Of a stretch of 24,000 nucleotides of DNA, positions 4,118-24,000 are shown in pieces. Under the pieces are notes generated by a model, which ran no database searches, was not told where the DNA came from, and saw only the letters and a list, made by a program, of their open reading frames with translations. The position numbers and the translations under genes were made by a program. Within the stretch, counting starts at the first letter, position 1; every line of letters begins with the position of its first letter. Origin of the DNA: Rhodoferax sp. Its GTDB lineage: Bacteria > Pseudomonadota > Gammaproteobacteria > Burkholderiales > Burkholderiaceae_C. The stretch lies in NCBI GenBank assembly GCA_030682475.1, contig JAUXOA010000101.1, positions 10,202 through 34,201 on the forward strand, given 5' to 3'.

Positions 4118-4188
4118 CCGTCGACACCCTGTTGGGGTTGTCATCCCGGACTCGATCCGGGATCTATAGATCCCGGCTTTCGCCGGGA
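4118..4188. repeat. REP-like compound palindrome, copy A
   Basis: CCGTCGAC...TTGGGGTTGTCA, then TCCCGGA-ctcga-TCCGGGA (4144-4162), the 16-bp perfect palindrome GGGATCTATAGATCCC (4159-4174), and TCCCGGC-tttc-GCCGGGA (4171-4188). The core TTGGGGT(T)GTCATCCCGGACTCGATCC recurs at 6664-6689. Confidence 0.7.
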
Positions 4189-6664: not shown

Positions 6665-6703
6665 TGGGGTGTCATCCCGGACTCGATCCCGGCCGTCGCC
6701 GGG
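6646..6703. repeat. REP-like compound palindrome, copy B (15-nt shorter variant)
   Basis: CCGTCGAC (6646-6653), then TTGGGGTGTCATCCCGGACTCGATCC (6664-6689), then CCCGGC-cgtc-GCCGGG (6688-6703). It equals copy A minus the central GGGATCTATAGATCC segment. It overlaps the first codon of, and the sequence just upstream of, the M48 protease gene. Confidence 0.65.
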
Positions 6704-6803: not shown

Positions 6804-7292
6804 ATGAGCTCCCTCACCCATTTTGACGCCCAGGGCCAGGCCCACATGGTGGACGTGGCGGCCAAGGCCAGCACGCACCGCATTGGCGTGGCTGGCGGCC
6901 GCATTGAAATGCAGCCCGCCACGCTGGCCATCATCGAAGCCGGTAGCGTCAAAAAAGGCGATGTGCTGGGCATTGCCCGCATCGCCGGCATCATGGCGGC
7001 CAAGAAAACCAGCGACCTGATTCCCTTGTGTCACCCGCTCGCGCTGACCCGTGTTGCTGTTGATTTTGTAACTACTCACGCAAACGCTACAGGGGCTGGC
7101 AGCATATTTTGCACTGCAACGGTCGAAACTGTCGGCCCCACTGGTGTCGAGATGGAAGCACTGACCGCGGTGCAGGTAGCGCTGCTCACCATTTATGACA
7201 TGTGCAAGGCGGTGGATCGGGGCATGATCATCACTGGCGTCAAGTTGCTGGAAAAGCATGGCGGCAAATCGGGCAGTTTTGTGGCCCGGTAA
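6804..7292 (+). CDS. moaC: Cyclic pyranopterin monophosphate synthase MoaC
   Basis: 162 aa from the ATG at 6804 ([18 protein letters not shown]...). It contains [28 protein letters not shown] and [26 protein letters not shown], diagnostic MoaC blocks. Confidence 0.92.
7099..7292 (+). repeat. Direct repeat copy 1 (3' end of the intact moaC)
   Basis: 194 bp, collinear with 9597-9790 at a constant offset of 2498 bp with no indels. I counted 7 mismatches. Confidence 0.9.
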
Positions 7293-7315
7293 GCGCCCCC
7301 AACATCACGTCTTTT

Positions 7316-8854
7316 TCACATTTTTCTTTGCGCGTTTTTATTTGCCCAGCGCGCATGACTCTCGGGAAATGCCGCCCGGTAGCGCATCAGATAGAACAGC
7401 GCCTCGTCCTCAAATCCGAGCAACACGGCGCTCTCGATCAGTTTTTCGATCACGCGCGGTTCCGGTGAAAAGTGCAGCATGGCCGTGGCCAGGCCCCTGA
7501 TATGGGCCGCATTGTCAGTCGTCAACCGCGTGGTGCTGAGCTCGGCAAAGCGCACCTGATTCTGAAACAGCCACGAGTCGCTAACCTTCTCCAAAGTATT
7601 GTCGCGATAAGCCTCTGAACGCATTTTGGGAATCAGGTAGAGCTGGCTGATGCGGTGGTAGTCCCAGGCGACGTAGGCGACAATTGCTATTAACAGCATA
7701 GCTACTCCAGAAAGAATGACAGGCGCTGAAGGTCGATTTCCCTGCCTATTCAAAGCTGGCGTCGGCACCGTAACGCCCGAGCGTGTCGCCCACAACAAAC
7801 CGATACACAGACCCAAGGCCATCTGGAACGGCCCGTACCATAACGGGTATTCCAGCATGCTGTGCAGCGCAATGACAGCCAACACCACCCACGCCATCTG
7901 GCGACTTGCGCCCGCCTCACGCCAGGGCTTGGTCCGCCACACCAGCCACAGCCCGCCGCCGCAAACAGCCAAGGCCACCGGCACGCCCAACTCCACCGCC
8001 AAATGCAGCGGCAGGTTATGTGCATTGTCCAGAATTTCGCAAAAACGTGGGCCGGGGTACAGCGTGATGAAATGGACGTAATCCAGCTCGCCCCAGCCCC
8101 AGCCAAGCCAGGGCTTCTGGGCGATCAGGTGCAGTACGTTAGCCCACAAGGTCAGGCGACTGGCGCACGCCGGGCCGGCATCATGCAATCGCGCCAAAAT
8201 GCCCGTGACATTGGGGTCAAGACCCGCCAAAACTGGCAAGGCGAATGCAGCGATACAGTAAGCCAGCGCCGTCGCCATAAGAACTCGCCGCATAGCAGGC
8301 TGGCGCCAGCCCCACATCAAGGCCATGGCCATCAAGATCACCAGTTGCACCAGCCCGGTTCGCGAAGACGCCGCCGCATTACCCATTGCCAAGACAACCG
8401 CCGCCGCCACAGGAACCGCAGCCAGGCAGTTCAGCGGATATGAACGCGATGTGTCACCAGGCAAAGCGGACTTGGATGGGTTCTGCGCAACCCACCACAG
8501 CAAGGCCGCCAGGCCGATATTGGTCAGCGTTGCAAACTGGTTGCGTTGACGCAGGTTGGCGAAGGCCTCGCCCACAGCGCTGCTGTTGACCCAGGGCCCC
8601 AACACGGCAGTCGCTCCAGAATACTGCAACAAGCCCAGCAGTGAACTGAGCAACGCGGCGACCAGCCAGGCCGATGCCATGGCGCGCACCAGGCGCCCTG
8701 CCAAAAACCGGCTTGACTCACCACGGCACGTCCCCAGCAAAGCTGCAGCGCAAGCCCACGAGAACAACAAGGGCACGACAGCAGGCGTTGGCCCCGGGGA
8801 AAACGGATTAAGCCAGGGCAGTGTTATGAAAAAGAAGGCGGCAATGGACAGCAT
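7316..8854 (-). CDS. PglL/O-antigen-ligase family O-oligosaccharyltransferase (Wzy_C core plus C-terminal Wzy_C_2-type domain)
   Basis: Polytopic membrane protein. The N-terminus MLSIAAFFFITLPWLNPFSPGPTP is the PglL-type motif. It has the ligase motif ILDNAHNLPLHLAVELG and a soluble C-terminus (...LFQNQVRFAELST...PEPRVIEKLIESAVLLG...). The start is set at the ATG at 8854; the listed start at 8944 adds 30 aa of low-complexity sequence. Confidence 0.72.
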   Translation of the reverse strand: MLSIAAFFFITLPWLNPFSPGPTPAVVPLLFSWACAAALLGTCRGESSRFLAGRLVRAMASAWLVAALLSSLLGLLQYSGATAVLGPWVNSSAVGEAFANLRQRNQFATLTNIGLAALLWWVAQNPSKSALPGDTSRSYPLNCLAAVPVAAAVVLAMGNAAASSRTGLVQLVILMAMALMWGWRQPAMRRVLMATALAYCIAAFALPVLAGLDPNVTGILARLHDAGPACASRLTLWANVLHLIAQKPWLGWGWGELDYVHFITLYPGPRFCEILDNAHNLPLHLAVELGVPVALAVCGGGLWLVWRTKPWREAGASRQMAWVVLAVIALHSMLEYPLWYGPFQMALGLCIGLLWATRSGVTVPTPALNRQGNRPSAPVILSGVAMLLIAIVAYVAWDYHRISQLYLIPKMRSEAYRDNTLEKVSDSWLFQNQVRFAELSTTRLTTDNAAHIRGLATAMLHFSPEPRVIEKLIESAVLLGFEDEALFYLMRYRAAFPESHARWANKNAQRKM

Positions 8855-9153
8855 AACTGTGAGGCAATTGGGGTAGCACTGGAATCCGACCCCAATTACA
8901 CAACCAAAACCGGTGCCGAAGCCGGCAGCACCAAACTGGGGCAACGCATTTCCCTGGCGGATGATTTGTACCGGTATGACACGCCGGGCGTACTGTGGCC
9001 GCGCATCATCGTGGCCAAAAGCGGCTACAGCCTGGCCGCCGACAAGCTGAGCGGCAGCTTTGATGCGGACAAGTGATTCGCGTCGTCGGAAAAAGTGAGT
9101 GTGGGCCAGCCAGGCGAGGTGATGTTTGGCCGACTGCTTGCCAAGCTCGTGCT

Positions 9154-9603
9154 TCAGCGCGTCAGGGCCATGAACAACTTTGGCAGTTGCTCGGGCAGGC
9201 GCTCGATGTGATCGATCACGGTGTACTGGTGGCCGAATATGTCGCTCACATAGTTGTCGGCCTTGGGGTCCAGATTGATGCAGTAGGTGAAGATGCCTTT
9301 TTGATCAGGCTCCTTGACCGATTGACGCGCGTCTTCGATCAGCAGGCGTTCGTCATGCGCGTCCACGTCGGACGGTTGTCCGCCGGTCAGGATCAGCATC
9401 AGTTTCTTGTCGGCTTTCTGGGCTTCAAGGTAGTGCGCGTCGTCGCGCGTATTGGAGTAAAAACCGGCAATCGCAAACGGGTTGCCCAGTTGTTCAATCG
9501 ACCAGGCCAGCAGAGACACCGCTTCCTGGCTGAGATGCAGAATGGTCTGGTCCGAGCCGGCGGCTTTTTCATTGAGCGACTCCGACAGGTCCAGCAGCAG
9601 CAT
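9154..9603 (-). pseudogene. 5'-truncated VWA-domain gene of the CbbO/NorD type (C-terminal ~147 codons only)
   Basis: It reads [13 protein letters not shown]... (DxSxS MIDAS motif at the very start), ...LMLILTGGQPSDVD..., and ends ...ERLPEQLPKLFMALTR, the C-terminal pattern I associate with NorD/CbbO. Full-length members are several-fold longer. Upstream of 9597 the frame continues only as antisense moaC sequence. Confidence 0.6.
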
Positions 9604-9790
9604 ATTTTGCACTGCAACGGTCGAAACCGTCGGCCCCACTGGTGTCGAGATGGAAGCACTGACCGCGGTGCAGGTAGCGCTGCTCACCATTTATGACATG
9701 TGCAAGGCGGTGGATCGGGGCATGACCATCACTGGCGTCAAGTTGCTGGAAAAGCACGGCGGTAAGTCGGGTAGTTTTGTGGCCCGCTAA
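9597..9790 (+). pseudogene. moaC 3' fragment (direct repeat copy 2, 64 codons plus stop, no 5' part)
   Basis: It encodes [63 protein letters not shown], matching moaC residues from 7099 onward with one I-to-T change. The listed ORF 9482..9790 has an unrelated N-terminal part that is antisense to the VWA fragment. Confidence 0.88.
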
Positions 9791-9814
9791 GGACGATACC
9801 GTTGGGGGGCAAGG

Positions 9815-10732
9815 TCAGTCGGCTGGACCGGCCGGTGGCGGACGATGCGCGAACAACCAGGTCTTGAAGGCGGCGGCGACGGCTGAGAGCTTCTTGCCCT
9901 TGGGATAGACCACCTGCCAGTGGCGGATCAAGGGGAAACCCTGCACATTCAGCAGCACCAGTTCCTTGAGCGCCAGCTCGGCCACCACGGTGGTGCTTGA
10001 GAGCACCGCCAGCCCCAAGCCACCGGCCACGGTTTGCTTGATGGCCTCGTTGCTGCCAACTTCCAGCCGATTTTTAAGCGTGATACCGTGCGCTGCAAAA
10101 AACCGCTCGGTCGTTAGCCGCGTGCCGGACCCCGGCTCGCGCAGAATAAAGGGCTCGTTCGCCAGGCGCTGTGGCGCCACATTGCGCTGCCCGACCAGCG
10201 GGTGCGTGGGCGGGGCCACCAGCACCAGCGGATTTTCTGCAAAATCCTCACTCACCACGTCCATCTGCTGCGGCGGCTGACCCATAATGTAGAGGTCGTC
10301 CTGGTTGCTGGCCAGGCGCTGCAGCAGGCTTTCCCGGTTGCCTACAAAGAGTGACACCTCGATGCCCGGATGCGCCGCACAAAACCCGCCCAGCAGTTTT
10401 GGCACCGTGTATTTCACCGTGGTCAGGATGGCGATCTTGAGGCTGCCTTTGTTGACACCACGCAGGGCGGCCAGGTCTTGCGACAGGCGCTCCATGCGGT
10501 TCTCGATGTCCTGGCAGGCATCGGCCAGCGTGCGCCCGGCAGCGGTCAGAAAAATCTTCTTGCCCAGTTGTTCAAACAGCGCCTCGCCCACGGTTTCAGA
10601 CAGTTGCTTGACCTGCAGCGACAGGGTGGGCGGCGACAGATGCAACTCCTCGGCGGCGCGGGCAAAGCTGCTGTGGCGGGTAACCGCCAGAAAGATGCGC
10701 AATTGGTGCAGCGTGGCGTGACGCAGATGCAT
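9815..10732 (-). CDS. cbbR: LysR-family transcriptional regulator CbbR (divergent from cbbL)
   Basis: 305 aa. The N-terminal wHTH is TLHQLRIFLAVTRHSSFARAAEELHLSPPTLSLQVKQLSE, followed by a LysR substrate-binding domain. It is divergently arranged 183 bp from cbbL, the canonical cbbR position. Confidence 0.85.
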   Translation of the reverse strand: MHLRHATLHQLRIFLAVTRHSSFARAAEELHLSPPTLSLQVKQLSETVGEALFEQLGKKIFLTAAGRTLADACQDIENRMERLSQDLAALRGVNKGSLKIAILTTVKYTVPKLLGGFCAAHPGIEVSLFVGNRESLLQRLASNQDDLYIMGQPPQQMDVVSEDFAENPLVLVAPPTHPLVGQRNVAPQRLANEPFILREPGSGTRLTTERFFAAHGITLKNRLEVGSNEAIKQTVAGGLGLAVLSSTTVVAELALKELVLLNVQGFPLIRHWQVVYPKGKKLSAVAAAFKTWLFAHRPPPAGPAD

Positions 10733-10894: not shown

Positions 10895-12385
<1,491 letters not shown>

Positions 12386-12406
12386 TTCATACAAGGAGAA
12401 ACAATC

Positions 12407-12841
12407 ATGATGACTAATCCTTCGCATATCGTCACGCAAGGGCAGTTTTCTTTTCTGCCCCCATTGACCGATGTGCAGATCACTGCACAAGTCAAATATG
12501 CACTGGGCAAGGGCTGGGCGTTGGGTATTGAATACACCGACGATCCGCACCCACGCAACACCTATTGGGAAATGTTCGGCAATCCGATGTTTGACCTGAA
12601 AGATCCCGCCGGAATTTTGGTGGAGATTAACAACTGCCGTAAGACATTCCCGAATCACTACATCCGTGTCACCGCATTCAGCGCGATACGCGGGGTAGAG
12701 AGCGTGACCATGTCCTACATTGTCAACCGTCCCAAGAATGAGCCAGGCTTTGGTCTGGTGCGTCAAGAAACGGATGGCCGTACCATGCGCTACACCATCC
12801 ATTCTTACGCCACCGACAAGCCTGAAGGCGAGCGGTATTGA
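12407..12841 (+). CDS. cbbS: RuBisCO small subunit, red-type (with C-terminal extension)
   Basis: 144 aa. TQGQFSFLPPLTDVQI is the red-type N-terminus, YWEMFGNPMFD is present, and the long C-terminus is typical of red-type small subunits. A GGAG SD lies 8 nt upstream. Confidence 0.93.
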   Translation: MMTNPSHIVTQGQFSFLPPLTDVQITAQVKYALGKGWALGIEYTDDPHPRNTYWEMFGNPMFDLKDPAGILVEINNCRKTFPNHYIRVTAFSAIRGVESVTMSYIVNRPKNEPGFGLVRQETDGRTMRYTIHSYATDKPEGERY

Positions 12842-12884
12842 TTGAGCGCATTGCTTTAAAAGCAGCGTTGTAAAAACGTAGTGC

Positions 12885-12919
12885 AAATGGCGGGCGCAAT
12901 AAACGCCCGCCATTTTTTT
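12885..12919 (+). terminator. Rho-independent terminator/attenuator between cbbS and cbbX
   Basis: ATGGCGGGCG (12887-12896), loop CAATAAA, CGCCCGCCAT (12904-12913), a perfect 10-bp GC-rich stem that runs into T7 (12913-12919). Confidence 0.8.
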
Positions 12920-12954
12920 CAACAACCCATTTTAAACACCATCGGGAATTTCCC

Positions 12955-13908
12955 ATGAGCGAAACAGATCCACTGAATGCCATATTGGCGGACGACGCGT
13001 CGGTCAATCTGGAAGCCGAATTTGAAGCCTCCAACGTCAAAGACGTACTCGACAAGCTCGACCGCGAACTGATCGGCTTAAAGCCGGTAAAAACCCGCAT
13101 CCGCGAAATCGCGGCACTGCTGTTGGTGGACAGGCTGCGCAAACAATTCGCGCTTACATCCGCCACCCCCACCCTGCACATGAATTTTACCGGCAACCCC
13201 GGTACCGGCAAGACCACTGTGGCCATGCGCATGGCCGAAATTTTGCATCGCCTGGGCTATGTGCGCGAAGGCCATCTGGTTTCCGTCACCCGCGACGATC
13301 TGGTCGGTCAGTACATCGGCCACACCGCGCCTAAAACCAAAGAAGTCATCAAAAAAGCCATGGGCGGCGTGCTGTTCATAGACGAAGCCTATTATCTGTA
13401 CAAGCCGGAAAACGAACGCGACTACGGCGCGGAATCCATCGAAATTCTGTTACAGGTGATGGAAAATAACCGCGACGATTTGGTGGTGATCCTGGCCGGT
13501 TACAAAGACCGCATGGACAAATTTTTTCATAGCAACCCCGGCATGCGCTCGCGCGTTGCGCACCACATTGATTTTCCAGACTACAGCGCCGAAGAATTGT
13601 TGCATATCGCCAAGCTCATGCTGGCAAGACAAAATTATCGCTTTAGCGCCGATGCCGAAAAAGCCTTTTTTAAATACATTTCGATACGCATGACGCTGGA
13701 ACATTTTGCTAACGCGCGCTCGGTACGTAACGCACTGGATCGTGCCCGCCTGCGCCAGGCCAATCGCCTGTTTGCTAACGCGAGTAAATCACTGAGCAAA
13801 ACCGACCTGATGACGCTGGAAGCGGAAGATATTTTAGCCAGCCGTGTGTTCCTGGAAGGCAAGCTGGACATGGACGGCGATGAAGGCAGTGACGGGGTAG
13901 TTGATTAA
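12955..13908 (+). CDS. cbbX: Red-type RuBisCO activase CbbX (AAA+ ATPase)
   Basis: 317 aa. Walker A is [11 protein letters not shown] and Walker B is VLFIDEAY, followed by the CbbX-like [31 protein letters not shown] block. It lies downstream of red-type cbbLS. Confidence 0.92.
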
Positions 13909-13978: not shown

Positions 13979-14134
13979 ATGCTGGACGACTGGGCTATAA
14001 AAAAAGGGGGGGAGGAATTGCCAAATTATTGGGAAGAAAAAACCCAATTGAGCATAGACAAAATTCCAACCCATATCATCAAAAAAATGTTCAATCGTGA
14101 AAAATATCTAATCATGGAAGAGCAAAATACATGA
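13979..14134 (+). CDS. Hypothetical small protein (51 aa; the alternative TTG start at 13901 gives 77 aa)
   Basis: The ATG at 13979 is preceded by GGGAG (13966-13970) at 8-nt spacing. The stop TGA at 14132-14134 overlaps the next ATG (ATGA). The product is Lys/Glu-rich with no motif I recognise. The region is very AT-rich, so coding status is uncertain. Confidence 0.35.
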   Translation: MLDDWAIKKGGEELPNYWEEKTQLSIDKIPTHIIKKMFNREKYLIMEEQNT

Positions 14135-14454
14135 CACTCAACGACCTTTATCGCGAGATGCGCGTAGCGCTGGAAGGGTCTGTCGATGCCGCAGCTATTG
14201 ACCGATTGACAACCGAGGCCAATCGGTTCGCCAGTACGGTAGGCTGGGCTGAAGGCGTGATTGACAAAGATGGGCGAATCGCCGAAGCCTTCGACGGCCT
14301 TAGAGAAATGGCCCAAGCCCGTTTTGAGCAAACCCGCGACAGCAACAGTGCTACTCTGCACGATGCGCTGGCTGGTCTTGTCCTCGCCATACGCACCCAT
14401 GACGAAGATATTGATCCGTCACCCGACAACGACGATCAGAACCACGACACCTGA
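14131..14454 (+). CDS. Hypothetical acidic protein (107 aa)
   Basis: ATGA start/stop overlap with the upstream ORF, and GGAAGAG lies ~9 nt upstream. The sequence looks helical/amphipathic with an acidic tail (DEDIDPSPDNDDQNHDT). No motif recognised. Competing ORFs on other frames look less protein-like. Confidence 0.5.
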   Translation: MTLNDLYREMRVALEGSVDAAAIDRLTTEANRFASTVGWAEGVIDKDGRIAEAFDGLREMAQARFEQTRDSNSATLHDALAGLVLAIRTHDEDIDPSPDNDDQNHDT

Positions 14455-14596: not shown

Positions 14597-15508
14597 TCAA
14601 GCCCAAGAGTTGATCAAAGGGCCGCCCTGCTCAGTCAGGAAGGCTTTGAACGAGGTGGCGGCGGGCGAGAGCTTTTTCTGCCTCAAGTGGGTGATGTACC
14701 AATTGCCCAACAGCGGCATACCTTCGATGTCCAGCAGGGCGATGTGGCCGCTGGCCAGTTCGTGGCGCACGGTGCGCATCGACAAAAAGCTCAGGCCCAT
14801 GCCGGCCATCACCGCTTGCTTGATGGTCTCATTGCTGGGCATGGGCATCACCACTTTTAACGGCGTCTGGTGTTCGGAAAACAGCCTCTCCATCGCCGCG
14901 CGGGTGCCCGAGCCCTCTTCGCGCACCACAAAACCGTAGTCAACCAGGGCTGAAAATGGCAGGTGTTTGCGTCGTACCAGGGCATGGCCGGGCGCCGCCA
15001 CGAACGCCTGCGGGTTGGTGGCAAAGGGAGTGGCTTCGCAGTCCAGGTTGGCGGGCGCGCGGCCCATCACCACCAGGTCGGCCTCGTTGCGCGCCAGCAG
15101 ACCCAGAATATTTTCGCGGTTGTCGATCTTCAACTGAATGTCGATGCCCGGAAAGTGTTGCCCAAAGCGCACCAGCAGCATGGGGATAAAATATTTGGCG
15201 GTGCTGACCACGGCCAGGTCGATGCGGCCCCTTTTCAGGCCGACATGCTCGGCCATCTGGGATTCCAGGTCTTTGAACTGGCCCATGGCGGCAATCGCGT
15301 GGGTCAAAAATGTCTCGCCCGCGTGGGTGAGCTGGATGTTGCGACCCAGGGGCTCGATCAGCGGCAAGCCAAACGCATCTTCGAGCTGACGGATTTGCAT
15401 GGACACGGCGGGTTGGGTCACAAACAGCCGCTCTGCCGCCTTGGACACCGAGCGCTGGCGCGCCACTTCGATGAAGGTCTGAATTTGTTTCAGGGTGTAG
15501 GGGCGCAT
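14597..15508 (-). CDS. LysR-family transcriptional regulator, second CbbR-like copy (divergent from cbbY-cbbK operon)
   Basis: 303 aa. The wHTH is TLKQIQTFIEVARQRSVSKAAERLFVTQPAVSMQIRQLED, followed by a LysR effector domain. It is divergent, 141 bp from cbbY. Confidence 0.85.
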   Translation of the reverse strand: MRPYTLKQIQTFIEVARQRSVSKAAERLFVTQPAVSMQIRQLEDAFGLPLIEPLGRNIQLTHAGETFLTHAIAAMGQFKDLESQMAEHVGLKRGRIDLAVVSTAKYFIPMLLVRFGQHFPGIDIQLKIDNRENILGLLARNEADLVVMGRAPANLDCEATPFATNPQAFVAAPGHALVRRKHLPFSALVDYGFVVREEGSGTRAAMERLFSEHQTPLKVVMPMPSNETIKQAVMAGMGLSFLSMRTVRHELASGHIALLDIEGMPLLGNWYITHLRQKKLSPAATSFKAFLTEQGGPLINSWA

Positions 15509-15649: not shown

Positions 15650-16402
15650 ATGTCTGCGACCCCCCTTCAAGCGCTGATTTTTGATGTCGATGGCACCCTG
15701 GCCGACACTGAAAGCGCGCACCGCGCGGCGTTCAACCACGCCTTTGCCGAGCTGGGCCTGGGCTGGGAATGGGACGAGGCGCTCTACACCGAGTTGCTCC
15801 ATATTTCGGGTGGCAAGGAGCGTATCCTGCACTACTGGCAAACCAGCCAGCCCGAGTTGCGCGAGCTCGAAGCCATGGCCCTGCAAGACACGGTGAACCG
15901 CCTGCACGAGCTCAAAACTGCTGCCTACGAGAGCGCCGTCAACGACGGTGCTGTCAGCCTGCGTCCGGGCGTGCTCAAACTGATGGACGAAGCCTTGGCC
16001 CAGGGTCTGCAACTGGCGATTGCCACCACCACCTCGCCCGTCAATATTGCGGCTTTGCTGCGCCGTGCGGTAGGCCCGGACTGGCGGCTGAACTTTACAG
16101 CGATTGGCGACGCCTCCACCGCGCCCATCAAAAAACCCCATCCGCAGGTTTACCTGCAGATGCTGGCGGCGCTCAAATTGAAGCCCGCAGAGTGCCTGGC
16201 ATTTGAAGATTCCAGCAACGGCTTGCGCGCCGCCACGGCAGCCGGGCTGGCGACACTGATCACGCCCACGCGCTACACCGCGCAGCACGATTTTTCGGCC
16301 GCCATGCGGGTGGTCCCTGATTTGAGTCAGATCGATCTGGCGCAATTGCGGCGCTGGCACGCCCAGAGCCAGCACCCGGCGCGCGTCGCCGCCACCCGTT
16401 AA
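15650..16402 (+). CDS. cbbY: HAD-family phosphatase CbbY (xylulose-1,5-bisphosphate phosphatase type)
   Basis: 250 aa. HAD motif I is LIFDVDGTLADTE, with later ATTT and FEDSxNGLxAA blocks as in CbbY. It is the first gene of the operon downstream of the second LysR gene. Confidence 0.85.
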   Translation: MSATPLQALIFDVDGTLADTESAHRAAFNHAFAELGLGWEWDEALYTELLHISGGKERILHYWQTSQPELRELEAMALQDTVNRLHELKTAAYESAVNDGAVSLRPGVLKLMDEALAQGLQLAIATTTSPVNIAALLRRAVGPDWRLNFTAIGDASTAPIKKPHPQVYLQMLAALKLKPAECLAFEDSSNGLRAATAAGLATLITPTRYTAQHDFSAAMRVVPDLSQIDLAQLRRWHAQSQHPARVAATR

Positions 16403-16407
16403 CATAA

Positions 16408-17151
16408 ATGTCCGAAGCGCTGAAAACCTCACCAGAAAGCCGCACCATGACCAGCTCACCGTCCCCGACCCTTCGCCTGGCCCCGTCCATCCTGTCGGCA
16501 GACTTCGCCCGCCTGGGTGAAGAAGTGCGCGCCATCGAGGCCGCCGGTGCCGATCTGGTGCACTTTGATGTGATGGACAACCACTACGTGCCCAACCTGA
16601 CCATCGGGCCACTGGTCTGTGAGGCGATTCGCCCGCACGTGCAGATTCCAATTGACGTGCACCTGATGGTGGAGCCGGTCGATTCGCTGATTCCCTTGTT
16701 TGCCAAGGCGGGTGCCAACATCATTACCTTCCACCCCGAAGCCTCAAAACATGTGGACCGCACCCTGCAACTGATTCGCGAGCATGGCTGCAAGGCCGGG
16801 CTGGTGCTGAACCCGGCCACCTCGGTGGAATGGCTGGACCATGTGATGGACAAGCTCGACATGGTCCTGCTGATGAGCGTGAACCCCGGCTTTGGCGGAC
16901 AGAAGTTCATCCCCAGCACGCTGGGTAAACTGCGCACCGTGCGCCAGCGCATTGAGGCGCATCAAGCGCGTGGTGGCCAGCCAATCTGGCTGGAAGTCGA
17001 TGGCGGCGTGAAGACCGACAACATCGCCGACATCGTACGCGCCGGGGCCGATACCTGTGTCGCGGGCAGTGCCGTGTTTGGCGCACCGGATGCCGATGGC
17101 GGCTACCACAGCGTGATGCGTGAATTGCGCCGCCAGGCTGGCGCGATTTAG
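16408..17151 (+). CDS. cbbE: Ribulose-phosphate 3-epimerase
   Basis: Contains [48 protein letters not shown] and VDGG. The start is ambiguous: the ATG at 16408 is 5 nt after the cbbY stop, and the ATG at 16447 ([14 protein letters not shown]) is the alternative. Confidence 0.9.
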
Positions 17152-17165
17152 ACGATTTTGATACC

Positions 17166-17218
17166 TTGTGGGACAGACCGCAGTTACGCGAAGCGAACAA
17201 GCTCTGTCCCCAACTGAT
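17166..17218 (+). repeat. Intercistronic palindromic element, full copy 1 (cbbE-cbbF spacer)
   Basis: TTGtGGGACAGA (17166-17177) pairs with TCTGTCCC-CAA (17203-17213). The inner hairpin is GTT-a-CGC-GAA-GCG-AAC (17183-17198). The element ends 16 nt before the cbbF ATG. Confidence 0.85.
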
Positions 17219-17234
17219 TAATGGATGAACCCCC

Positions 17235-18329
17235 ATGCTTTTGACCCAACGCTCTACCCTGACGCAATTTCTGATCGAAGAGCGCCGCCGCTTCCCTGGC
17301 TCCGGGGGCGACTTCAACGCCCTCATTCTGGACGTGGCGCTGGCCTGCAAAGCCATCGCCAGTGACGTTGCCTTTGGCGAGCTGAGCGGCATGATGGGCA
17401 ACCACGCGGTCGAGGAAGGGAGCTCTGTCAACGTGCGGGGCGAGACCCAGAAAAAGCTCGACGTGGTGAGCAACGACGTCTTTATCCAGCGAACCGAGTG
17501 GTCAGGTCATCTGGCGGGCATGGCTTCGGAAGAGATCGACTTGCCGTATCAAATTCCGGGGCAGTACCCGCGCGGCAAGTACCTGCTGGTGTTTGACCCG
17601 CTGGACGGCTCCAGCAACATTGACGTCAATGTCGCCGTGGGCAGCATTTTCTCCATCCTGCGCGCACCGCAGGCGGTGATCGACAGCGGCCGCGATGTGG
17701 TCGAGGCTGACTTTCTCCAGCCCGGCGCAACCCAGATTGCCGCCGGCTACGCACTGTATGGCCCCGCCACCATGCTGATTCTCTCGGTCGGCAACGGCGT
17801 GGCGGGTTTCACACTCGACCCGAATCTGGGCGAGTTCATGCTCACGCACCCCCATATGCAGATTCCGCCAGATACCCATGAGTTCGCCATCAACGTCTCC
17901 AACAGCCGGTTTTGGGAGGCCCCGGTCAAGCGCTATGTGGATGAATGCCTGGCCGGCAAGACCGGGCCCCGGGCCAAAGACTTCAACATGCGCTGGATCG
18001 CCTCCATGGTGGCCGAGGCGCACCGCATCCTGATGCGCGGCGGTGTTTTTTTGTACCCGCGTGACACCAAAGATGCGTCCAAGGCGGGCCGCCTGCGCCT
18101 GCTGTATGCGGCCAACCCCATTGGTTTTATCATGGAGCAGGCCGGGGGCCGCGCCAGTACCGGCGAAAAACCGATGCTGGGCGTGCAGCCAAGCTCGCTG
18201 CACCAGCGCATCGGCCTGGTGTTTGGCTCCAAAAACGAGGTCGAACGCATCGAGCGCTACCACGCCGAACCCGAGCCGAAAGAAACAGTGGACCCCCTGT
18301 TTTCTCCGCGCAGCCTGTTCAGAAACTAA
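17235..18329 (+). CDS. cbbF: Fructose-1,6-bisphosphatase class 1 (FBPase/SBPase)
   Basis: 364 aa. The N-terminus is [12 protein letters not shown], and [12 protein letters not shown], GxxLYGP and LLYExxPxxFxxEQAGG-type blocks are present. Confidence 0.93.
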
Positions 18330-18334
18330 CAGCC

Positions 18335-18491
18335 TTGTGGGACATCCTGAAAGCTTGCGGGACAGACCGTATTCTGAGATTTTGCGGGACAGACCGCAGT
18401 TACGCGAAGCGAACAAGCTCTGTCCTCAACTATTCAAGGCGAGCCAGATCTGTCCTAAACCGTTCAAGGGCCAGCCCTGTCCCCAACTGAT
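18335..18491 (+). repeat. Cluster of the same element in the cbbF-cbbP spacer: three 5' arms, one inner hairpin, three 3' arms
   Basis: The 5' arms GGGACA(GA) are at 18339, 18359 and 18386. The full copy spans 18382-18434 with the inner hairpin at 18403-18411. The 3' arms (T)CTGTCC(T/C) are at 18419, 18449 and 18477. All are in the same orientation. Confidence 0.85.
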
Positions 18492-18514
18492 TTTTAACTT
18501 ACGGAGACGCCACC

Positions 18515-19393
18515 ATGTCTGAACGCCATCCCATCATTGCCATCACCGGATCAAGCGGTGCGGGCACCACCTCGGTCACGCGCAGCTTCGAAACCATCTT
18601 CCGGCGTGAGAATGTCAATGCCGCCATCATCGAGGGCGACAGCTTTCACCGCTACGACCGCAAGGACATGAAAGTGAAAGCCGCCGAGGCCGAGGCGCTC
18701 GGCAACAATAACTTCAGCCACTTTGGATCGGATAACAACCTGTTTGCCGAGCTGGCGGAGCTGTTTCGCGCCTATGCTGAAACCGGCACCGGCCAACGCC
18801 GCAAATACCTGCACGACACCGAAGAAGCCGCCCCCTACAAGCAGCAGCCCGGCACCTTCACTCCCTGGGAAGATGTGCCCGCCAATACCGACCTGCTGTT
18901 CTACGAAGGCCTGCACGGCGCGGTGGTCACACCCGAGGTCAACATCGCGCAGCACCCGGACCTGCTGATCGGCGTGGTGCCAGTCATCAATCTGGAGTGG
19001 ATCCAGAAGCTGTACCGTGACAAGTCCAAGCGCGGCTACAGCACCGAAGCGGTGACCGACACCATCCTGCGCCGCATGCCCGACTACGTGAACTACATCT
19101 GCCCGCAGTTCATGCACACGCATGTGAACTTCCAGCGCGTGCCCACGGTGGACACCTCCAACCCCTTCATTGCAAAGGAGATTCCAACGCCCGACGAGAG
19201 CATGGTGGTGATCCGCTTTGCCAACCCCAAGGGCATCGACTTTCAATACCTGCGCAACATGATCGACGCCAGCTTCATGAGCCGCGCCAACACCATCGTG
19301 GTGCCCGGCGGCAAGATGGAACTGGCCATGCAACTGATCTTCACGCCCTTTGTCTGGCGCATGATGGAGCGGAAAAAAAAGCGGGCCTCCTGA
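18515..19393 (+). CDS. cbbP: Phosphoribulokinase
   Basis: 292 aa. The P-loop region is HPIIAITGSSGAGTTSV, and EGDSFHRYDR and LFYEGLHG blocks are present. A GGAG SD lies 8 nt upstream. Confidence 0.94.
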   Translation: MSERHPIIAITGSSGAGTTSVTRSFETIFRRENVNAAIIEGDSFHRYDRKDMKVKAAEAEALGNNNFSHFGSDNNLFAELAELFRAYAETGTGQRRKYLHDTEEAAPYKQQPGTFTPWEDVPANTDLLFYEGLHGAVVTPEVNIAQHPDLLIGVVPVINLEWIQKLYRDKSKRGYSTEAVTDTILRRMPDYVNYICPQFMHTHVNFQRVPTVDTSNPFIAKEIPTPDESMVVIRFANPKGIDFQYLRNMIDASFMSRANTIVVPGGKMELAMQLIFTPFVWRMMERKKKRAS

Positions 19394-19395
19394 AA

Positions 19396-19601
19396 TCCTG
19401 AAATATTGTGGGACAGACCGCAGTTACACGAAGTGAACAAGCTCTGTCCCCAACTGATCGTCAGATGCTGGATGTTCGCCAGCTCCGTCCCCAACTTGAA
19501 ACGGGATGTTGGTTGTCTGCCAGCTCTGTCCCCAACACTCCTGAAACTTTGTGGGACAGACCGCAGCTACACGCAGTGAGCCAGCTCTGTCCCCAACTAA
19601 T
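19396..19601 (+). repeat. Cluster of the same element in the cbbP-cbbT spacer: two full copies flanking two extra 3'-arm units
   Basis: The full copies are 19406-19458 and 19549-19601. The 3' arms are at 19443, 19484, 19525 (41-bp phasing) and 19586. TCCTGAAA-NN-TTGTGGGACAGACCG leaders are at 19396 and 19539. Confidence 0.85.
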
Positions 19602-19623
19602 TAGATATGAAAAGTGAAAAACA

Positions 19624-21657
19624 ATGAATACGCCTTCACCTGAACTAGCCCGCCAAATGGCCAACGCCATCCGCATGCTCGCCGTCGATGCGGTCGAAAA
19701 AGCCAAGTCCGGCCACCCCGGTGCGCCCATGGGCATGGCCGACATTGCCGAGGTGCTGTGGAACCGGCACCTCAAGCACAACCCGGCCAATCCGCACTGG
19801 CCGGACCGCGACCGCTTCGTGCTGAGTAACGGCCACGGCTCGATGCTGATCTACGCGCTCTTGCACCTCACGGGCTACGACCTGCCGATGGCCGAGCTGA
19901 AGAACTTCCGCCAGTTGCACAGCAAGACCGCCGGCCACCCCGAAGTGGGCGTGACGCCCGGTGTGGAAACCACCACCGGCCCGCTCGGCCAGGGCCTGAC
20001 CAACGCGGTGGGCATGGCGCTGGCCGAGAAACTGCTGGCAGCCGAGTTCAACAAGTCCGGCCAGGCGATAGTGGACCACTTCACCTACACCTTCATGGGC
20101 GACGGTTGCCTGATGGAAGGCATCAGCCACGAAGCCTGCTCGCTGGCCGGCACGCTGCGCCTGTCCAAGCTGATCGGTTTTTACGACGACAACGGCATCT
20201 CGATCGACGGCCACGTGGAGGGCTGGTTCACCGACGACACGCCCAAGCGCTTTGAGGCCTACGGCTGGCACGTGATCCCGGCGGTAGACGGGCACGACAG
20301 TGCCGCCCTGGACGTCGCCGTACGCGCGGCGAAAGCCCAAGCCGCCTTGCCCGGCGGCAAGCCGACGCTGATTTGCTGCAAGACCGTGATTGGCATGGGC
20401 TCGCCCAACAAGGCGGGTACGCACGACGTGCATGGCGCCGCGCTGGGCACCACTGAGGTGGCGGCCACCCGCGCTGCCCTGGGCTGGACCGCCGCCCCGT
20501 TTGAAGTGCCCGCTGAGGTGGCCACCGCCTGGAACGCGGTGGAACGCGGTCAGGCCGCCGAGCGCGCTTGGGCGCTGCGCTTTGAAGCCTACCGCACGCA
20601 GTACCCGCTGGAGGCAGCCGAGTTCGAGCGCCGCATGGCGGGCGAGCTGCTGCCGGCTTTTGCCGACAAGCTGCCCGAGCTGCTGGCCGCCATTGCCGCC
20701 AAACCCGATGCCATTGCGACGCGCAAGGCCAGCCAGAATGCGCTGGACGCACTCAGCGCCCTGGTGCCCGAATTTTTTGGCGGCAGCGCCGACTTGACCG
20801 GCTCCAACCTGACCAACTTCAAGGGTTGCGTCAAAGCCGGGCGTGGCAAGGACGGGCAGTTTGTGGCCGGCAACCACATGAGCTACGGCGTGCGCGAATT
20901 CGGCATGGCGGCCATCATGAACGGCATCGCGCTGCACGGCGGCTACATTCCTTACGGCGGCACCTTCCTGACTTTCAGCGACTACAGCCGCAACGCCATT
21001 CGGATGGCCGCGCTGATGAAGCTGCGCGTGATCCACGTCTTCACCCACGACTCAATCGGCCTGGGCGAAGACGGCCCGACGCATCAGAGCGTGGAGCACA
21101 TTCCCAGTCTGCGCATCATTCCGGGCCTCGACGTGTGGCGTCCCGCTGACGGGCTGGAGACGGCCCTGGCCTGGACCTGCGCGATTGAACGCAAGGACGG
21201 CCCCAGTGCCCTCTGCCTGTCGCGCCAGAACCTGCCGCGTCTGACCGACGTGGCGATGGCGACGCGCATCCGCCAGGGCGGCTACGTGCTGTCCGACATG
21301 GAAGGCGCACAGGCCGTGATCCTCTCCACCGGCTCGGAGTTGGAGCTGGCTATCGCAGCGCAGGCCACGCTGGCCGCCGAGGGCATTGCCACCCGTGTCG
21401 TGTCCATGCCCTGCACCAATGTGTTTGACCGCCAGAGCGCGGCCTACCAGGAGCAGGTGTTGCCGCTGGCCCTGCCTGCGGTAGCGATCGAGGCCGCGCA
21501 CCCGGACTTCTGGCGCAAGTATGTGGGTCGCACCGGTGTGGTGGTCGGCATCGCCAGCTTCGGCGAATCCGCTCCGGCCAAAGACCTGTACGCCCACTTC
21601 GGCATCACGTCGGCGCGCGTGGTGGATGCTGTGCGCACGCTGGCGAGCCGCCGATGA
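19624..21657 (+). CDS. cbbT: Transketolase
   Basis: 677 aa. Contains [18 protein letters not shown], the ThDP motif [13 protein letters not shown] and [14 protein letters not shown]. Confidence 0.96.
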
Positions 21658-22325
21658 ACCCGATGTTTGACCTGGTCATGTTCGATCTGGACGGCACGCT
21701 GATCGAAACCGCGCCGGAAATCTGCGACGCGACCAACGACACCCTGCGTCACTTTGGCTTGCCCGAGGTAACGCAGCAGCAGGTCAACGACTGGATCGGC
21801 CACGGCACGCGCGAGCTGCTGATCCAGGCGCTGGCCTGCAGTAAAAATAGCAGCGTGGAGGCGGTGCGCAGCAGTGACAGTCTGGCCTTGAATCTGGCCG
21901 AGTTCGACAAGCACTACCAAAACCGCTGCGGTACCCGCAGCCATCTTTACCCCCAGGTGCGCGAGACTTTGGTGGCCCTGCGTGAGCGTGGCGTGAAGCT
22001 GGCCGTGGTCACCAACAAGGAAGGTCGCTACACCGCCACCGTATTGAACGCGCACGAGCTTATGCCGCTGCTGGACTGCGTCGTGAGTGGCGACACGCTG
22101 CCCACCAAAAAGCCCAACCCGGCGGGCATTCAGAGTTGCATGGCACAATTCGGCGTGCCGCGTGAGCGGGCCTTGTTTGTGGGCGATTCCAGCATCGACG
22201 TGGCCACCGCCCGCAACGCGGGCATCTCTGTCTGGGCACTGCCCTATGGCTACAACATGGGGCAGCCGATCGCGGCCTGCGCCCCCGACCGGGTCATCGC
22301 CGATTGCTCATCGCTGCTAAATTAA
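21654..22325 (+). CDS. cbbZ: Phosphoglycolate phosphatase (HAD family)
   Basis: 223 aa. HAD motif I is [14 protein letters not shown], with later VTNK, KKPNPAG and [15 protein letters not shown]. Its ATG overlaps the cbbT stop (ATGA). Confidence 0.88.

Positions 22326-22368: not shown

Positions 22369-24000
<1,632 letters not shown>

Follow-up and report, generated by a model that had tools for sequence, protein, structure and literature searches.

Stable hairpins between cistrons are known to set the stability of separate segments of an mRNA, as in the puf operon of Rhodobacter and at the repetitive extragenic palindromic sequence (REP) between malE and malF of Escherichia coli, and REPs or other intercistronic hairpins block 3' exonucleases. 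Here we study a hairpin element of the Calvin-cycle (cbb) operon of a Rhodoferax sp., in a stretch of 24,000 nucleotides (GenBank assembly GCA_030682475.1, contig JAUXOA010000101.1, positions 10,202 to 34,201 of the forward strand) that we call the window; coordinates count from its first nucleotide. Four full copies lie on the + strand of the window, in the gaps cbbE/F, cbbF/P and cbbP/T, of 83, 185 and 230 nucleotides. We consider it probable that they belong to a dispersed family of short palindromic repeats of the Comamonadaceae and neighbouring Burkholderiales, similar to REPs and to the bacterial interspersed mosaic elements (BIMEs). Its spread would be local, and its copies would work as mRNA hairpins just after stop codons, or at least be tolerated there. 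The family is of a known kind and apparently undescribed so far.

The systems closest to this element are the REPs and BIMEs of E. coli and other enterobacteria and the REPIN doublets of Pseudomonas. Like them, it is a short extragenic imperfect palindrome that forms a hairpin, all window copies being intergenic; it is scattered over genomes, presumably transcribed within operons and common to related genera; and it forms mosaics of arms in both orientations with conserved linkers, although the order in the window is nested and not regularly alternating. REPs frequently lie at most 15 nucleotides past the stop of the upstream gene and have effects there on translation and on the stability of the mRNA (PMC12306157; PMC2817692). 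In E. coli, REPs less than 16 nucleotides from a stop codon make ribosomes stall, and the upstream gene is expressed less (Liang et al. 2015, related in PMC12306157). The window copies fall within this range: stems begin 14, 5 and 12 nucleotides past the stop codons of cbbE, cbbF and cbbP. The REPs associated with RAYTs (REP-associated tyrosine transposases, Y1/HUH enzymes whose genes typically have REPs on either side) have a conserved GTAG or CGTC tetranucleotide at one end (PMC3733652), whereas the consensus ends of the present family carry no such tag. Two further differences are that a single arm is here not itself a palindrome, the functional unit being a doublet of 45-65 nucleotides with a hypervariable, covarying centre, and that orientation is about 93% sense, instead of alternating.

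Repeats of the type of miniature inverted-repeat transposable elements (MITEs), such as Correia/NEMIS of Neisseria, RUP, BOX, ERIC and SMAG, also have terminal inverted repeats that form a stem, vary in presence between relatives, are co-transcribed with their neighbours, and have proposed roles in mRNA processing and stability. Our family does have terminal inverted repeats (TTGnGGGACAGA and the complement TCTGTCCYCAA), but it is far shorter, about 60 nucleotides including leader and tail, shows neither a target-site duplication nor a known matching insertion sequence, and stands apart by its strong sense bias and near-fixed spacing from stop codons. The hairpins of puf and malE-malF share with it a stable stem-loop between cistrons that is able to shield the upstream segment from 3' exonucleases; they are, however, single-locus structures or classical REPs with experimental support, while the present hairpin is a predicted one and belongs to a multi-copy family.

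A literature search on sequence strings and on REP, MITE and Comamonadaceae turned up only BRE (Hot et al. 2011, PMC3110155). This small intergenic repeat of unknown function occurs as tandem copies in Bordetella and in several Comamonadaceae, such as Polaromonas JS666, Delftia and Rhodoferax. Its sequence differs from that of our element: it has about 75-91 bp and 69% GC (e.g. ...GCCCCCTTGGGGGGCAGCAAGC...), and its published copies contain neither GGGACAGA nor TCTGTCCC (PMC3110155). Three REP surveys, consulted by term search (PMC2817692, PMC3733652, PMC12306157), do not mention the Comamonadaceae genera that we searched for, and the program cmscan, run against Rfam 15 over positions 16800-20000 with E<=10, returned three matches at chance level, all within coding sequence. 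A first-pass annotation of the window, made from its letters only, had failed to recognise the element as a described one; with neither an Rfam match nor a publication, we concur.

The same annotation took the element for a structure special to the intercistronic gaps of the cbb operon. We scanned 185,579 species-representative genomes with the pattern GGGACAGAC-N10-40-CTCTGTCCYCAAC, which gave at least 119 stretches with at least 137 strict matches. The matches listed are in Rhodoferax, Variovorax, Roseateles/Pelomonas, Polaromonas, Limnohabitans, Ramlibacter, Caenimonas, Hylemonella, Ideonella, Acidovorax, Ca. Aalborgicola and in metagenome-assembled genomes (MAGs) of Comamonadaceae or Burkholderiales: all belong to the Burkholderiales except one contig, in a MAG labelled Chitinophaga, which is taken to be mis-binned. 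No cbb locus is among them. These stretches at unrelated genes, and the absence of the element from six orthologous cbb operons described below, contradict the claim: the family is not specific to cbb. Confinement to the operon holds within the 24-kb window, where the exact arms occur nowhere else, and fails beyond it. In essence, the annotation was right in its fallback proposal, a MITE or REP family present here by chance. One could still think of a cis-regulatory RNA dedicated to the cbb operon, tuning the expression of FBPase, phosphoribulokinase (PRK) and transketolase, as three consecutive cbb gaps bear the element while the rest of the window has none, and as all window copies are sense and structured. 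With the element at unrelated junctions in about a hundred other genomes, this is scarcely credible.

In the order of the sense strand, the unit consists of a leader rAmCy, before which TGA often stands, a left arm TTGC-GGGACAGA-CC, a freely variable inner hairpin, a right arm GC-TCTGTCC(Y)CAA-C and a tail TGAyTA. The consensus ends are yTTGCGGGACAGACC and GCTCTGTCCYCAACTGAyTA. Outside the searched pattern, conservation extends to TTG (96-98%), to a bulged C before the left arm (80%), to the leader rAmCy, and to the tail, at 63-77% per position, after which purines follow. The extent of about 53 nucleotides proposed earlier is thus too short, since a leader yyTGArAyy and the tail are also conserved between genomes. 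The centre between the arms measures 10-40 nucleotides and exists in several subtypes common to different genera; it is nearly always a hairpin, usually capped by C(GNA)G. As an aside, among the potential novel motifs tabulated for Bifidobacterium animalis subsp. lactis AD011 is an intergenic pair, GGGACAG(N)15TGTCCC, whose arms resemble the core of the family (PMC5217627, Table 7).

The history of the window copies can be read in the cbb operons of related genomes (loci outside the window are denoted by L and a number). The nearest relatives of the window PRK are proteins of Rhodoferax and Polaromonas type. Six orthologous operons, whose PRK is 87-92% identical (L120, L121, L122, L123, L124/L125 and L128), have no copy of the element. 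In these element-free relatives, cbbP and cbbT are separated by 1-2 nucleotides (TGAcATG), or by 44 in L122, and the gaps between cbbF and cbbP range from 31 to 121 nucleotides. The closest relative, L127, with a PRK identity of 95%, has a single copy of short type in the cbbF-cbbP gap, where the window has three nested layers; it sits between the same TAA stop and the same native ribosome-binding stretch as in the window, and the gap reads TAA-taacc-TTGTGGGACAGACC GTAGCGAAGCGAAG CTCTGTCCTCAAC-TGATTTTTT.... Since the relatives at 87-92% have no copy and the relative at 95% has one simple copy, the arrival is recent: the cbb copies are lineage-specific and still changing, and they grew locally by nesting and tandem duplication. 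They were inserted after the native stops, because cbbF and cbbP end at an identical codon whether or not the element is there. The unchanged stops of both genes in element-free relatives also rule out, for the window, that the element supplies the stop codon. The cbb hairpins did not, therefore, evolve as a regulator of the dosage of Calvin-cycle genes; a generic repeat was inserted there recently.

Other repeats are found in the same operons. The cbbF-cbbP gap of other relatives, L125 and L128 among them, contains a repeat unrelated to our element, …ATAGCTrGTTGCGC…CTGG.CTAGAGG…GAT, in L121 (9915-10000), L124 (1-145), L125 (90-210) and L128 (596-675); it is also present downstream of the element in L058. 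This ATAGCT-type gap repeat may match the motif pair ATAGCT(N)22CAAAAG reported for Polaromonas naphthalenivorans CJ2 (PMC5217627). Long GC-rich palindromes of the CCCTCACCCCCACCCTCGCCCGCCCCTGCGGGCGAGGGTGGGGGTGAGGGGG type form a further repeat class in these operons: one lies in the cbbT-cbbZ gap of L120 (12888-13044), another at a contig end in L124 (1-35). These genomes seem to hold several families of intergenic repeats that use the same niche.

Local amplification is also seen away from cbb. Neighbouring gaps of one operon often hold copies of the same subtype, in the window as in L062, L092, L100 and L109, which points to local spread or gene conversion, and L076 has three identical copies in tandem. 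Nesting is a recurrent behaviour of the family, because it is found in other genomes (L046 2244-2290, L089 1913-1953, L100 573-612, L016 1362-1442), as a full copy with an extra right arm or as two left arms before one right arm. Within one MAG, Rhodoferax Chersky.3_6, at least 5 loci were obtained. As a rough estimate from 8-kb blocks around the matches, the flanks of the searched copies hold about 6-7 further full clusters per 800 kb (~1 per 120 kb); only full clusters were used, because half-sites at up to 2 mismatches are dominated by chance (45 in shuffled loci).

Each of the four window copies folds as proposed in the first-pass annotation: the outer stem has a single bulged base, CC forms an internal bulge, and a GNA triloop caps the inner hairpin. 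Their predicted folding energies range from -17.2 to -21.1 kcal/mol, with z of -2.5 to -3.8 against shuffles. The double changes reported between copies, from G:C to A:T and from T:A to C:G, are indeed present, and covariation is strong in larger alignments; the window variants, however, belong to pre-existing subfamilies and do not reflect compensation that arose in place. This is so because their inner sequences are identical to those of copies elsewhere: that of copy 1 is found in L094, that of copy 3 in L021, L079 and L100, and that of copy 4 in L112.

Two alignments were used to measure covariation. The first is the ungapped class of length 45 nucleotides, with 43 distinct sequences: 97.2% of its cells are paired, 5 of the 6 inner pairs show double changes (50 cells), none of 500 shuffles reaches the observed pairing, and in slid controls the paired share is 30-45%. 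From this class we built a covariance model, which recovers 125 copies in the window and 99 loci. In the resulting alignment, 93.1% of cells are paired, 11 pairs show double changes (165 cells), and 0 of 500 shuffles do as well; this second alignment leans towards structure because it is fitted to the model, which is not the case of the first. The hairpin is thus maintained by selection. Folding the whole cbbF-cbbP gap shows that nested pairing is possible, but no better than in shuffles (z -0.29).

Which strand is folded is a separate question. It had been argued that a G:U pair in the outer stem of copy 2 speaks for folding of the + strand transcript. The argument is weak, as the antisense strand is predicted to be more stable in 96 of the 125 copies, even if the G:U pair is indeed the majority state of the family at this position (T 79, C 62). 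The choice of strand is better supported by orientation, by adjacency to stop codons and by the sense-specific C(GNA)G loop. Among 141 copies, this loop appears as CGCAG in 42, CGAAG in 40 and CGUAG in 5.

Genes around the copies were called with a simple program based on GC content at third codon positions (GC3), which reproduced the genes of the window correctly. Where the two neighbouring genes are co-directional, sense copies number 57 and antisense copies 4 (binomial p about 5e-13). The first-pass annotation held that copies scattered widely in both orientations would point to a generic repeat: the wide scatter is there, but so is this strong transcript-strand bias, because of which a role at the RNA level stays plausible. 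Orientation tracks transcription and not replication, because GC3 skew, a crude proxy of replication direction, gives 23:23 when the genes of the element strand are contrasted, locus by locus, with those of the opposite strand. Convergent gaps hold 22 copies and divergent gaps 5.

The distance to the upstream gene is nearly fixed. A sense gene is clearly present upstream of 91 copies; in 58 of these, its stop codon begins at position -11 (38 copies), -12 (13) or -10 (7) relative to GGGACAGAC, that is, 3-5 nucleotides separate the stop from the first base of the stem; the stop types at that spot are TGA 58, TAA 8 and TAG 4. The copies in convergent gaps, whose position is not limited by any downstream gene, include 15 at 4-9 nucleotides from a stop and 7 at 39-129, several of the latter being later copies of tandem arrays. 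Downstream genes often begin 9-20 nucleotides past CAAC, with a purine run similar to a Shine-Dalgarno sequence just after the tail.

Such a stable GC-rich hairpin directly 3' of genes, with 22 copies at convergent gene ends, recalls a transcription terminator or an attenuator that would reduce read-through into downstream cistrons. We regard this as improbable, as there is no U-tract, the tail being CAACTGATTA, TGAyTA and then purines; as a prediction of sigma-70-like promoters and intrinsic terminators over 16800-19900 found no site; and as most copies lie inside operons that need read-through, such as rpoB-rpoC, groES-groEL and fusA-tuf. The inverted repeat GGGACAGA / TCTGTCCC could also be an operator read in duplex DNA, by CbbR or a nucleoid protein for example, and the conservation of the arm sequence itself across genera, beyond pairing, would agree with it. 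This proposal is very improbable: the spacer of 10-40 nucleotides is not tolerable for a dimeric DNA binder and itself covaries as a hairpin, the divergent gaps that contain promoters are avoided, and the strand bias follows transcription.

Among the matches listed, 94 Pfam families are represented upstream and 114 downstream of the element. Some junctions recur in different genera: rpoB-rpoC (L013, L026, L048, with L056 and L113), the region upstream of rplK (L014, L016, L078, L095), groES-groEL (L007, L044, L058), the E2-E3 genes of a 2-oxoacid dehydrogenase (L002, L080, L114), mreD-PBP2, or mreD-mrdA (L032, L041, L059, L103), and the junction of the two genes for ETF subunits (L011, L018, L075). 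With thousands of gaps available, placement at random should produce far fewer coincidences. At one junction, inner hairpins may differ fully in sequence and length while the arms stay constant, and the recurring junctions are either old sites with arms held by selection or hot spots of insertion. An unlikely, more functional account is that the element is a portable post-stop module, placed in sense 4-6 nucleotides past stops by a mechanism that reads the stop context, or kept there by a conserved factor that recognises the invariant bulged outer stem. It would then be a general intercistronic device across Comamonadaceae, controlling termination, re-initiation or transcript segmentation in core operons (rpoBC, groESL, fusA-tuf, E2-E3) and, recently, in cbb.

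The reading that we prefer, a REP-like family whose copies act or are tolerated as post-stop mRNA hairpins, suggests the following mode of action. The polycistronic cbb mRNA would carry each copy as a stable stem-loop, with a predicted energy of about -17 to -21 kcal/mol. If it behaves as REPs do in E. coli, which is most likely, a hairpin close to the stop codon would hinder the terminating ribosome and reduce the output of the upstream gene; it would also block 3'-to-5' exonucleases and so protect the upstream segment; and it would break the tight translational coupling found in most relatives at cbbP/cbbT (TGAcATG), making initiation independent. The helix would fold on itself, so that the stop codon and the next ribosome-binding site stay about 10 nucleotides apart in space; insertions may be tolerated even in rpoB-rpoC and groES-groEL because this self-closing helix keeps the two sites close. 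In the window, the insertions turned the compact junctions of most relatives (1-2 nucleotides for cbbP/cbbT) into structured spacers. In this lineage, epimerase, FBPase, PRK and transketolase are therefore probably produced in altered proportions.

The main competitor is that the element is purely selfish. It would be mobile DNA of MITE or REPIN type, non-autonomous and without host function, that is moved in trans in the form of a single-stranded hairpin, and its sense orientation after stops would mark the sites where insertions do the least harm. This is possible, if rather doubtful. It would account for the presence or absence of copies among close relatives, for nested and tandem local amplification (including L076) and truncated solo arms, for inner-hairpin subfamilies common to several genomes, for the occupation of the cbbF-cbbP gap by another repeat family in other relatives, and for a loop motif suited to DNA hairpins. 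It sits less well with other results. No transposase or RAYT was found in about 890 kb of flanks, no target-site duplication is present, since the stop triplet and the 3' TGA differ for TAA and TAG, and neither a BLAST search of plasmids nor a scan of viral contigs gave a match. Old, diverged copies in one genome are still more than 90% paired, unlike what passive decay would give; the same junctions are occupied across genera; and many copies stay 4-9 nucleotides from the stop even in long convergent gaps, where avoiding harm does not require it.

Several observations also weigh against the REP-like reading that we favour. Its functional steps all come by analogy with other systems. Of the 141 copies, 35 overlap a called open reading frame (ORF), mostly through apparent errors of the crude caller. 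The copy number, roughly estimated from the flanks, looks like tens rather than hundreds per genome, whereas RAYT-associated REPs number about 100 or more. The sense strand is not favoured by predicted folding, with means over the 125 copies of -20.8 kcal/mol for sense and -22.0 for antisense. The C(GNA)G loop, reportedly best known from Hirao and colleagues as an exceptionally stable DNA mini-hairpin, would fit a role in single-stranded DNA as well as one in RNA. The occupation of the same housekeeping junctions in different genera could reflect a conserved host function, and not a tolerated selfish repeat. Mobility, finally, is supported only by presence or absence among relatives and by local amplification, no mobilising gene having been found in the flanks: a phmmer search with E. 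coli RayT against the 6427 ORFs of the roughly 890 kb of element flanks gave nothing at E<=10. A target-site duplication of TGA or TNA is rejected, as the 5' triplet (TGA, TAA or TAG) and the 3' TGA disagree in L004, L031, L060, L075, L093 and L114. No transposase family is among the 25 most frequent Pfam families of either set of neighbouring genes, though no search aimed at a parent insertion sequence was made. The DNA-stable GNA loop and the nesting within other copies hint at a single-stranded DNA step, with a known transposase unsupported.

Three other candidates were set aside: attC sites, by inspection, for the wrong order of core-like motifs; selenocysteine insertion sequences (SECIS), also by inspection, for the element follows unrelated, non-selenoprotein genes and occurs in tandem arrays; and pairs of DNA uptake sequences, for the arms are not over-represented outside elements. 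What remains is a compact and easily recognised repeat family, apparently undescribed, shared by the Comamonadaceae and their neighbours, whose unusual traits are its strict transcribed-strand bias and its near-fixed stop-codon spacing. As a clean natural system, it lends itself to two questions: whether selection favours REP-like hairpins for what they do to terminating ribosomes and to the ends of mRNAs, and by what route repeats of this sort spread without an obvious transposase. It is also relevant to the annotation and assembly of these genomes.

We now turn to the copies themselves, all on the + strand. The four full copies, assigned to repeat family D2 with 86-100% identity, start where the first-pass annotation placed them; the ends given there (17218, 18434, 19458 and 19601) correspond to the unit from TTGY to CAAC plus four bases of the tail. 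Its statement that each copy ends 16-24 nucleotides before the next start codon applies to copies 1 and 4, and not to copy 2, about 80 nucleotides from cbbP, or copy 3, about 165 from cbbT. Besides the full copies there are six half-copies, two left arms and four right arms, which that annotation had missed. With them, the order L L L R R R of the cbbF-cbbP gap is a nested one, and the order L R R R L R makes the cbbP-cbbT gap a mosaic.

The cbbE/F gap is the simplest. The stop codon TAG of cbbE (17149-17151) lies 14 nucleotides 5' of the first stem and is followed by the leader TTTTGATACC of copy 1 (17156-17165; family D4; positions -11 to -5 of the profile), which holds the family's own TGA (17159-17161), not serving as a stop codon here. 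Copy 1 (17166-17214) has the outer stem TTG.GGGACAGA / TCTGTCCCCAA and the inner hairpin GCAGTTACGCGAAGCGAACAAG (-20.2 kcal/mol, z -3.84, 86.8 bits). Its tail TGATTA (17215-17220) covers positions +1 to +6 of the downstream profile, T/G/A/T/T/A at 63-77%, and the ATG of cbbF is at 17235.

The cbbF/P gap has the order L1 L2 [L3-inner-R1] R2 R3. The TAA of cbbF (18327-18329) is 5 nucleotides 5' of the outermost left arm L1, TTGTGGGACA (18335-18344), which matches the left arm of the single copy of L127. There follow the leader of the middle layer, TCCTGAAAGC (18345-18354, family D4), its left arm L2, TTGCGGGACAGACCG (18355-18369, from the arm search), and the leader of the innermost copy, TATTCTGAGATT (18370-18381, from sequence reading and the repeat families). 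Copy 2, the innermost layer (18382-18430; -17.2 kcal/mol, 85.5 bits), has a G:U pair in its outer stem (TCAAC). Direct reading shows next a variant tail TATTCAAGG with a remnant CGAGCCAG of the inner stem of the middle layer (18431-18447), an arrangement, 'AyTTCAAGG + CGAGCCAGC + right arm', that is also found in L100 at 528. The middle right arm R2, ATCTGTCCTAAAC (18448-18460, from the arm search), is followed by a variant tail CGTTCAAGG and the remnant GCCAG of the outer layer (18461-18474, by direct reading), and by the outermost right arm R3, CCCTGTCCCCAAC (18475-18487, family D3). After R3 comes TGATTTTTAACTTACGGAGAC, the native ribosome-binding region of cbbP (ATG at 18515), a stretch common to L125, L127 and L128.

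The order in the cbbP/T gap is [L-R], R, R, [L-R], with a GGATGT-rich linker between copies. The TGA of cbbP (19391-19393) lies 12 nucleotides 5' of the stem of copy 3, whose leader occupies 19394-19405 by direct reading; CCTGAAAT stands in perfect tandem across this junction (19389-19396 and 19397-19404), which could be a trace of the insertion of the element, or of slippage. Copy 3 (19406-19454; -18.7 kcal/mol, 81.8 bits) has the inner hairpin GCAGTTACACGAAGTGAACAAG. It is followed by a tail TGATCG, a linker with a GATGCTGGATGTT motif and GCCAG (19455-19482, family D5); this linker is of the GGATGTYGGAWGT family, found also between copies in L008, L021, L070, L079, L099 and L100. A truncated unit with the solo right arm CTCCGTCCCCAAC (19483-19495, families D3 and D5) leads to a second linker, GGGATGTTGGTTGT with GCCAG (19496-19523; family D5, 84% identity, spacing 41), and to the solo right arm CTCTGTCCCCAAC (19524-19536, from the arm search and the repeat families), the truncated unit being a 41-nucleotide tandem repeat. 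Then come the leader ACTCCTGAAACT of copy 4 (19537-19548, family D4), copy 4 itself (19549-19597; -21.1 kcal/mol, 84.0 bits), with inner hairpin GCAGCTACACGCAGTGAGCCAG, and its tail TAATTA (19598-19603), before the ATG of cbbT at 19624. Linkers similar to GGATGT(C/T)GGA(A/T)GT, here at 19461-19482 and 19503-19518, recur between copies in L008, L021, L062, L070, L079, L099, L100 and L112, and make the composite clusters BIME-like.

The cbb genes of the window form two units, each with its own divergent LysR regulator gene (9815-10732 and 14597-15508, both on the minus strand, the latter by Pfam): cbbLS-cbbX (10916-13908) and cbbY-E-F-P-T-Z-G (15650 onward). The second unit, identified by Pfam and all on the + strand, consists of cbbY (15650-16402), cbbE for ribulose-phosphate 3-epimerase (ORF 16408-17151; Ribul_P_3_epim, E 4e-88), cbbF for FBPase (17235-18329), cbbP for PRK (18515-19393), cbbT (19624-21657), cbbZ (21654-22325) and cbbG (22384-23388). 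Between the two units lies a minus-strand ORF of 124 amino acids without a Pfam match (14026-14400). In L120 and L122, the second cbb unit is paired with a form II RuBisCO instead.

Elsewhere in the window, a direct repeat of 195 nucleotides, 96% identical, is found at 7099-7293 and 9597-9791; we take it to encode the C-terminal end of MoaC. The two repeats bracket a 2.3-kb segment with a minus-strand gene for an O-antigen or protein-glycosylation ligase of Wzy_C/PglL type (7316-8944) and a further ORF, an arrangement suggestive of an insertion in the course of which the 3' end of moaC was duplicated. A second small palindrome, GGG(T/G)TGTCATCCCGGACTCGATCC(G/C)GG, unrelated to the hairpin family, is present at 4135-4161 and 6666-6692 with 93% identity: one site is directly 3' of a YaeQ gene, and the other lies within an ORF called as an M48 peptidase.

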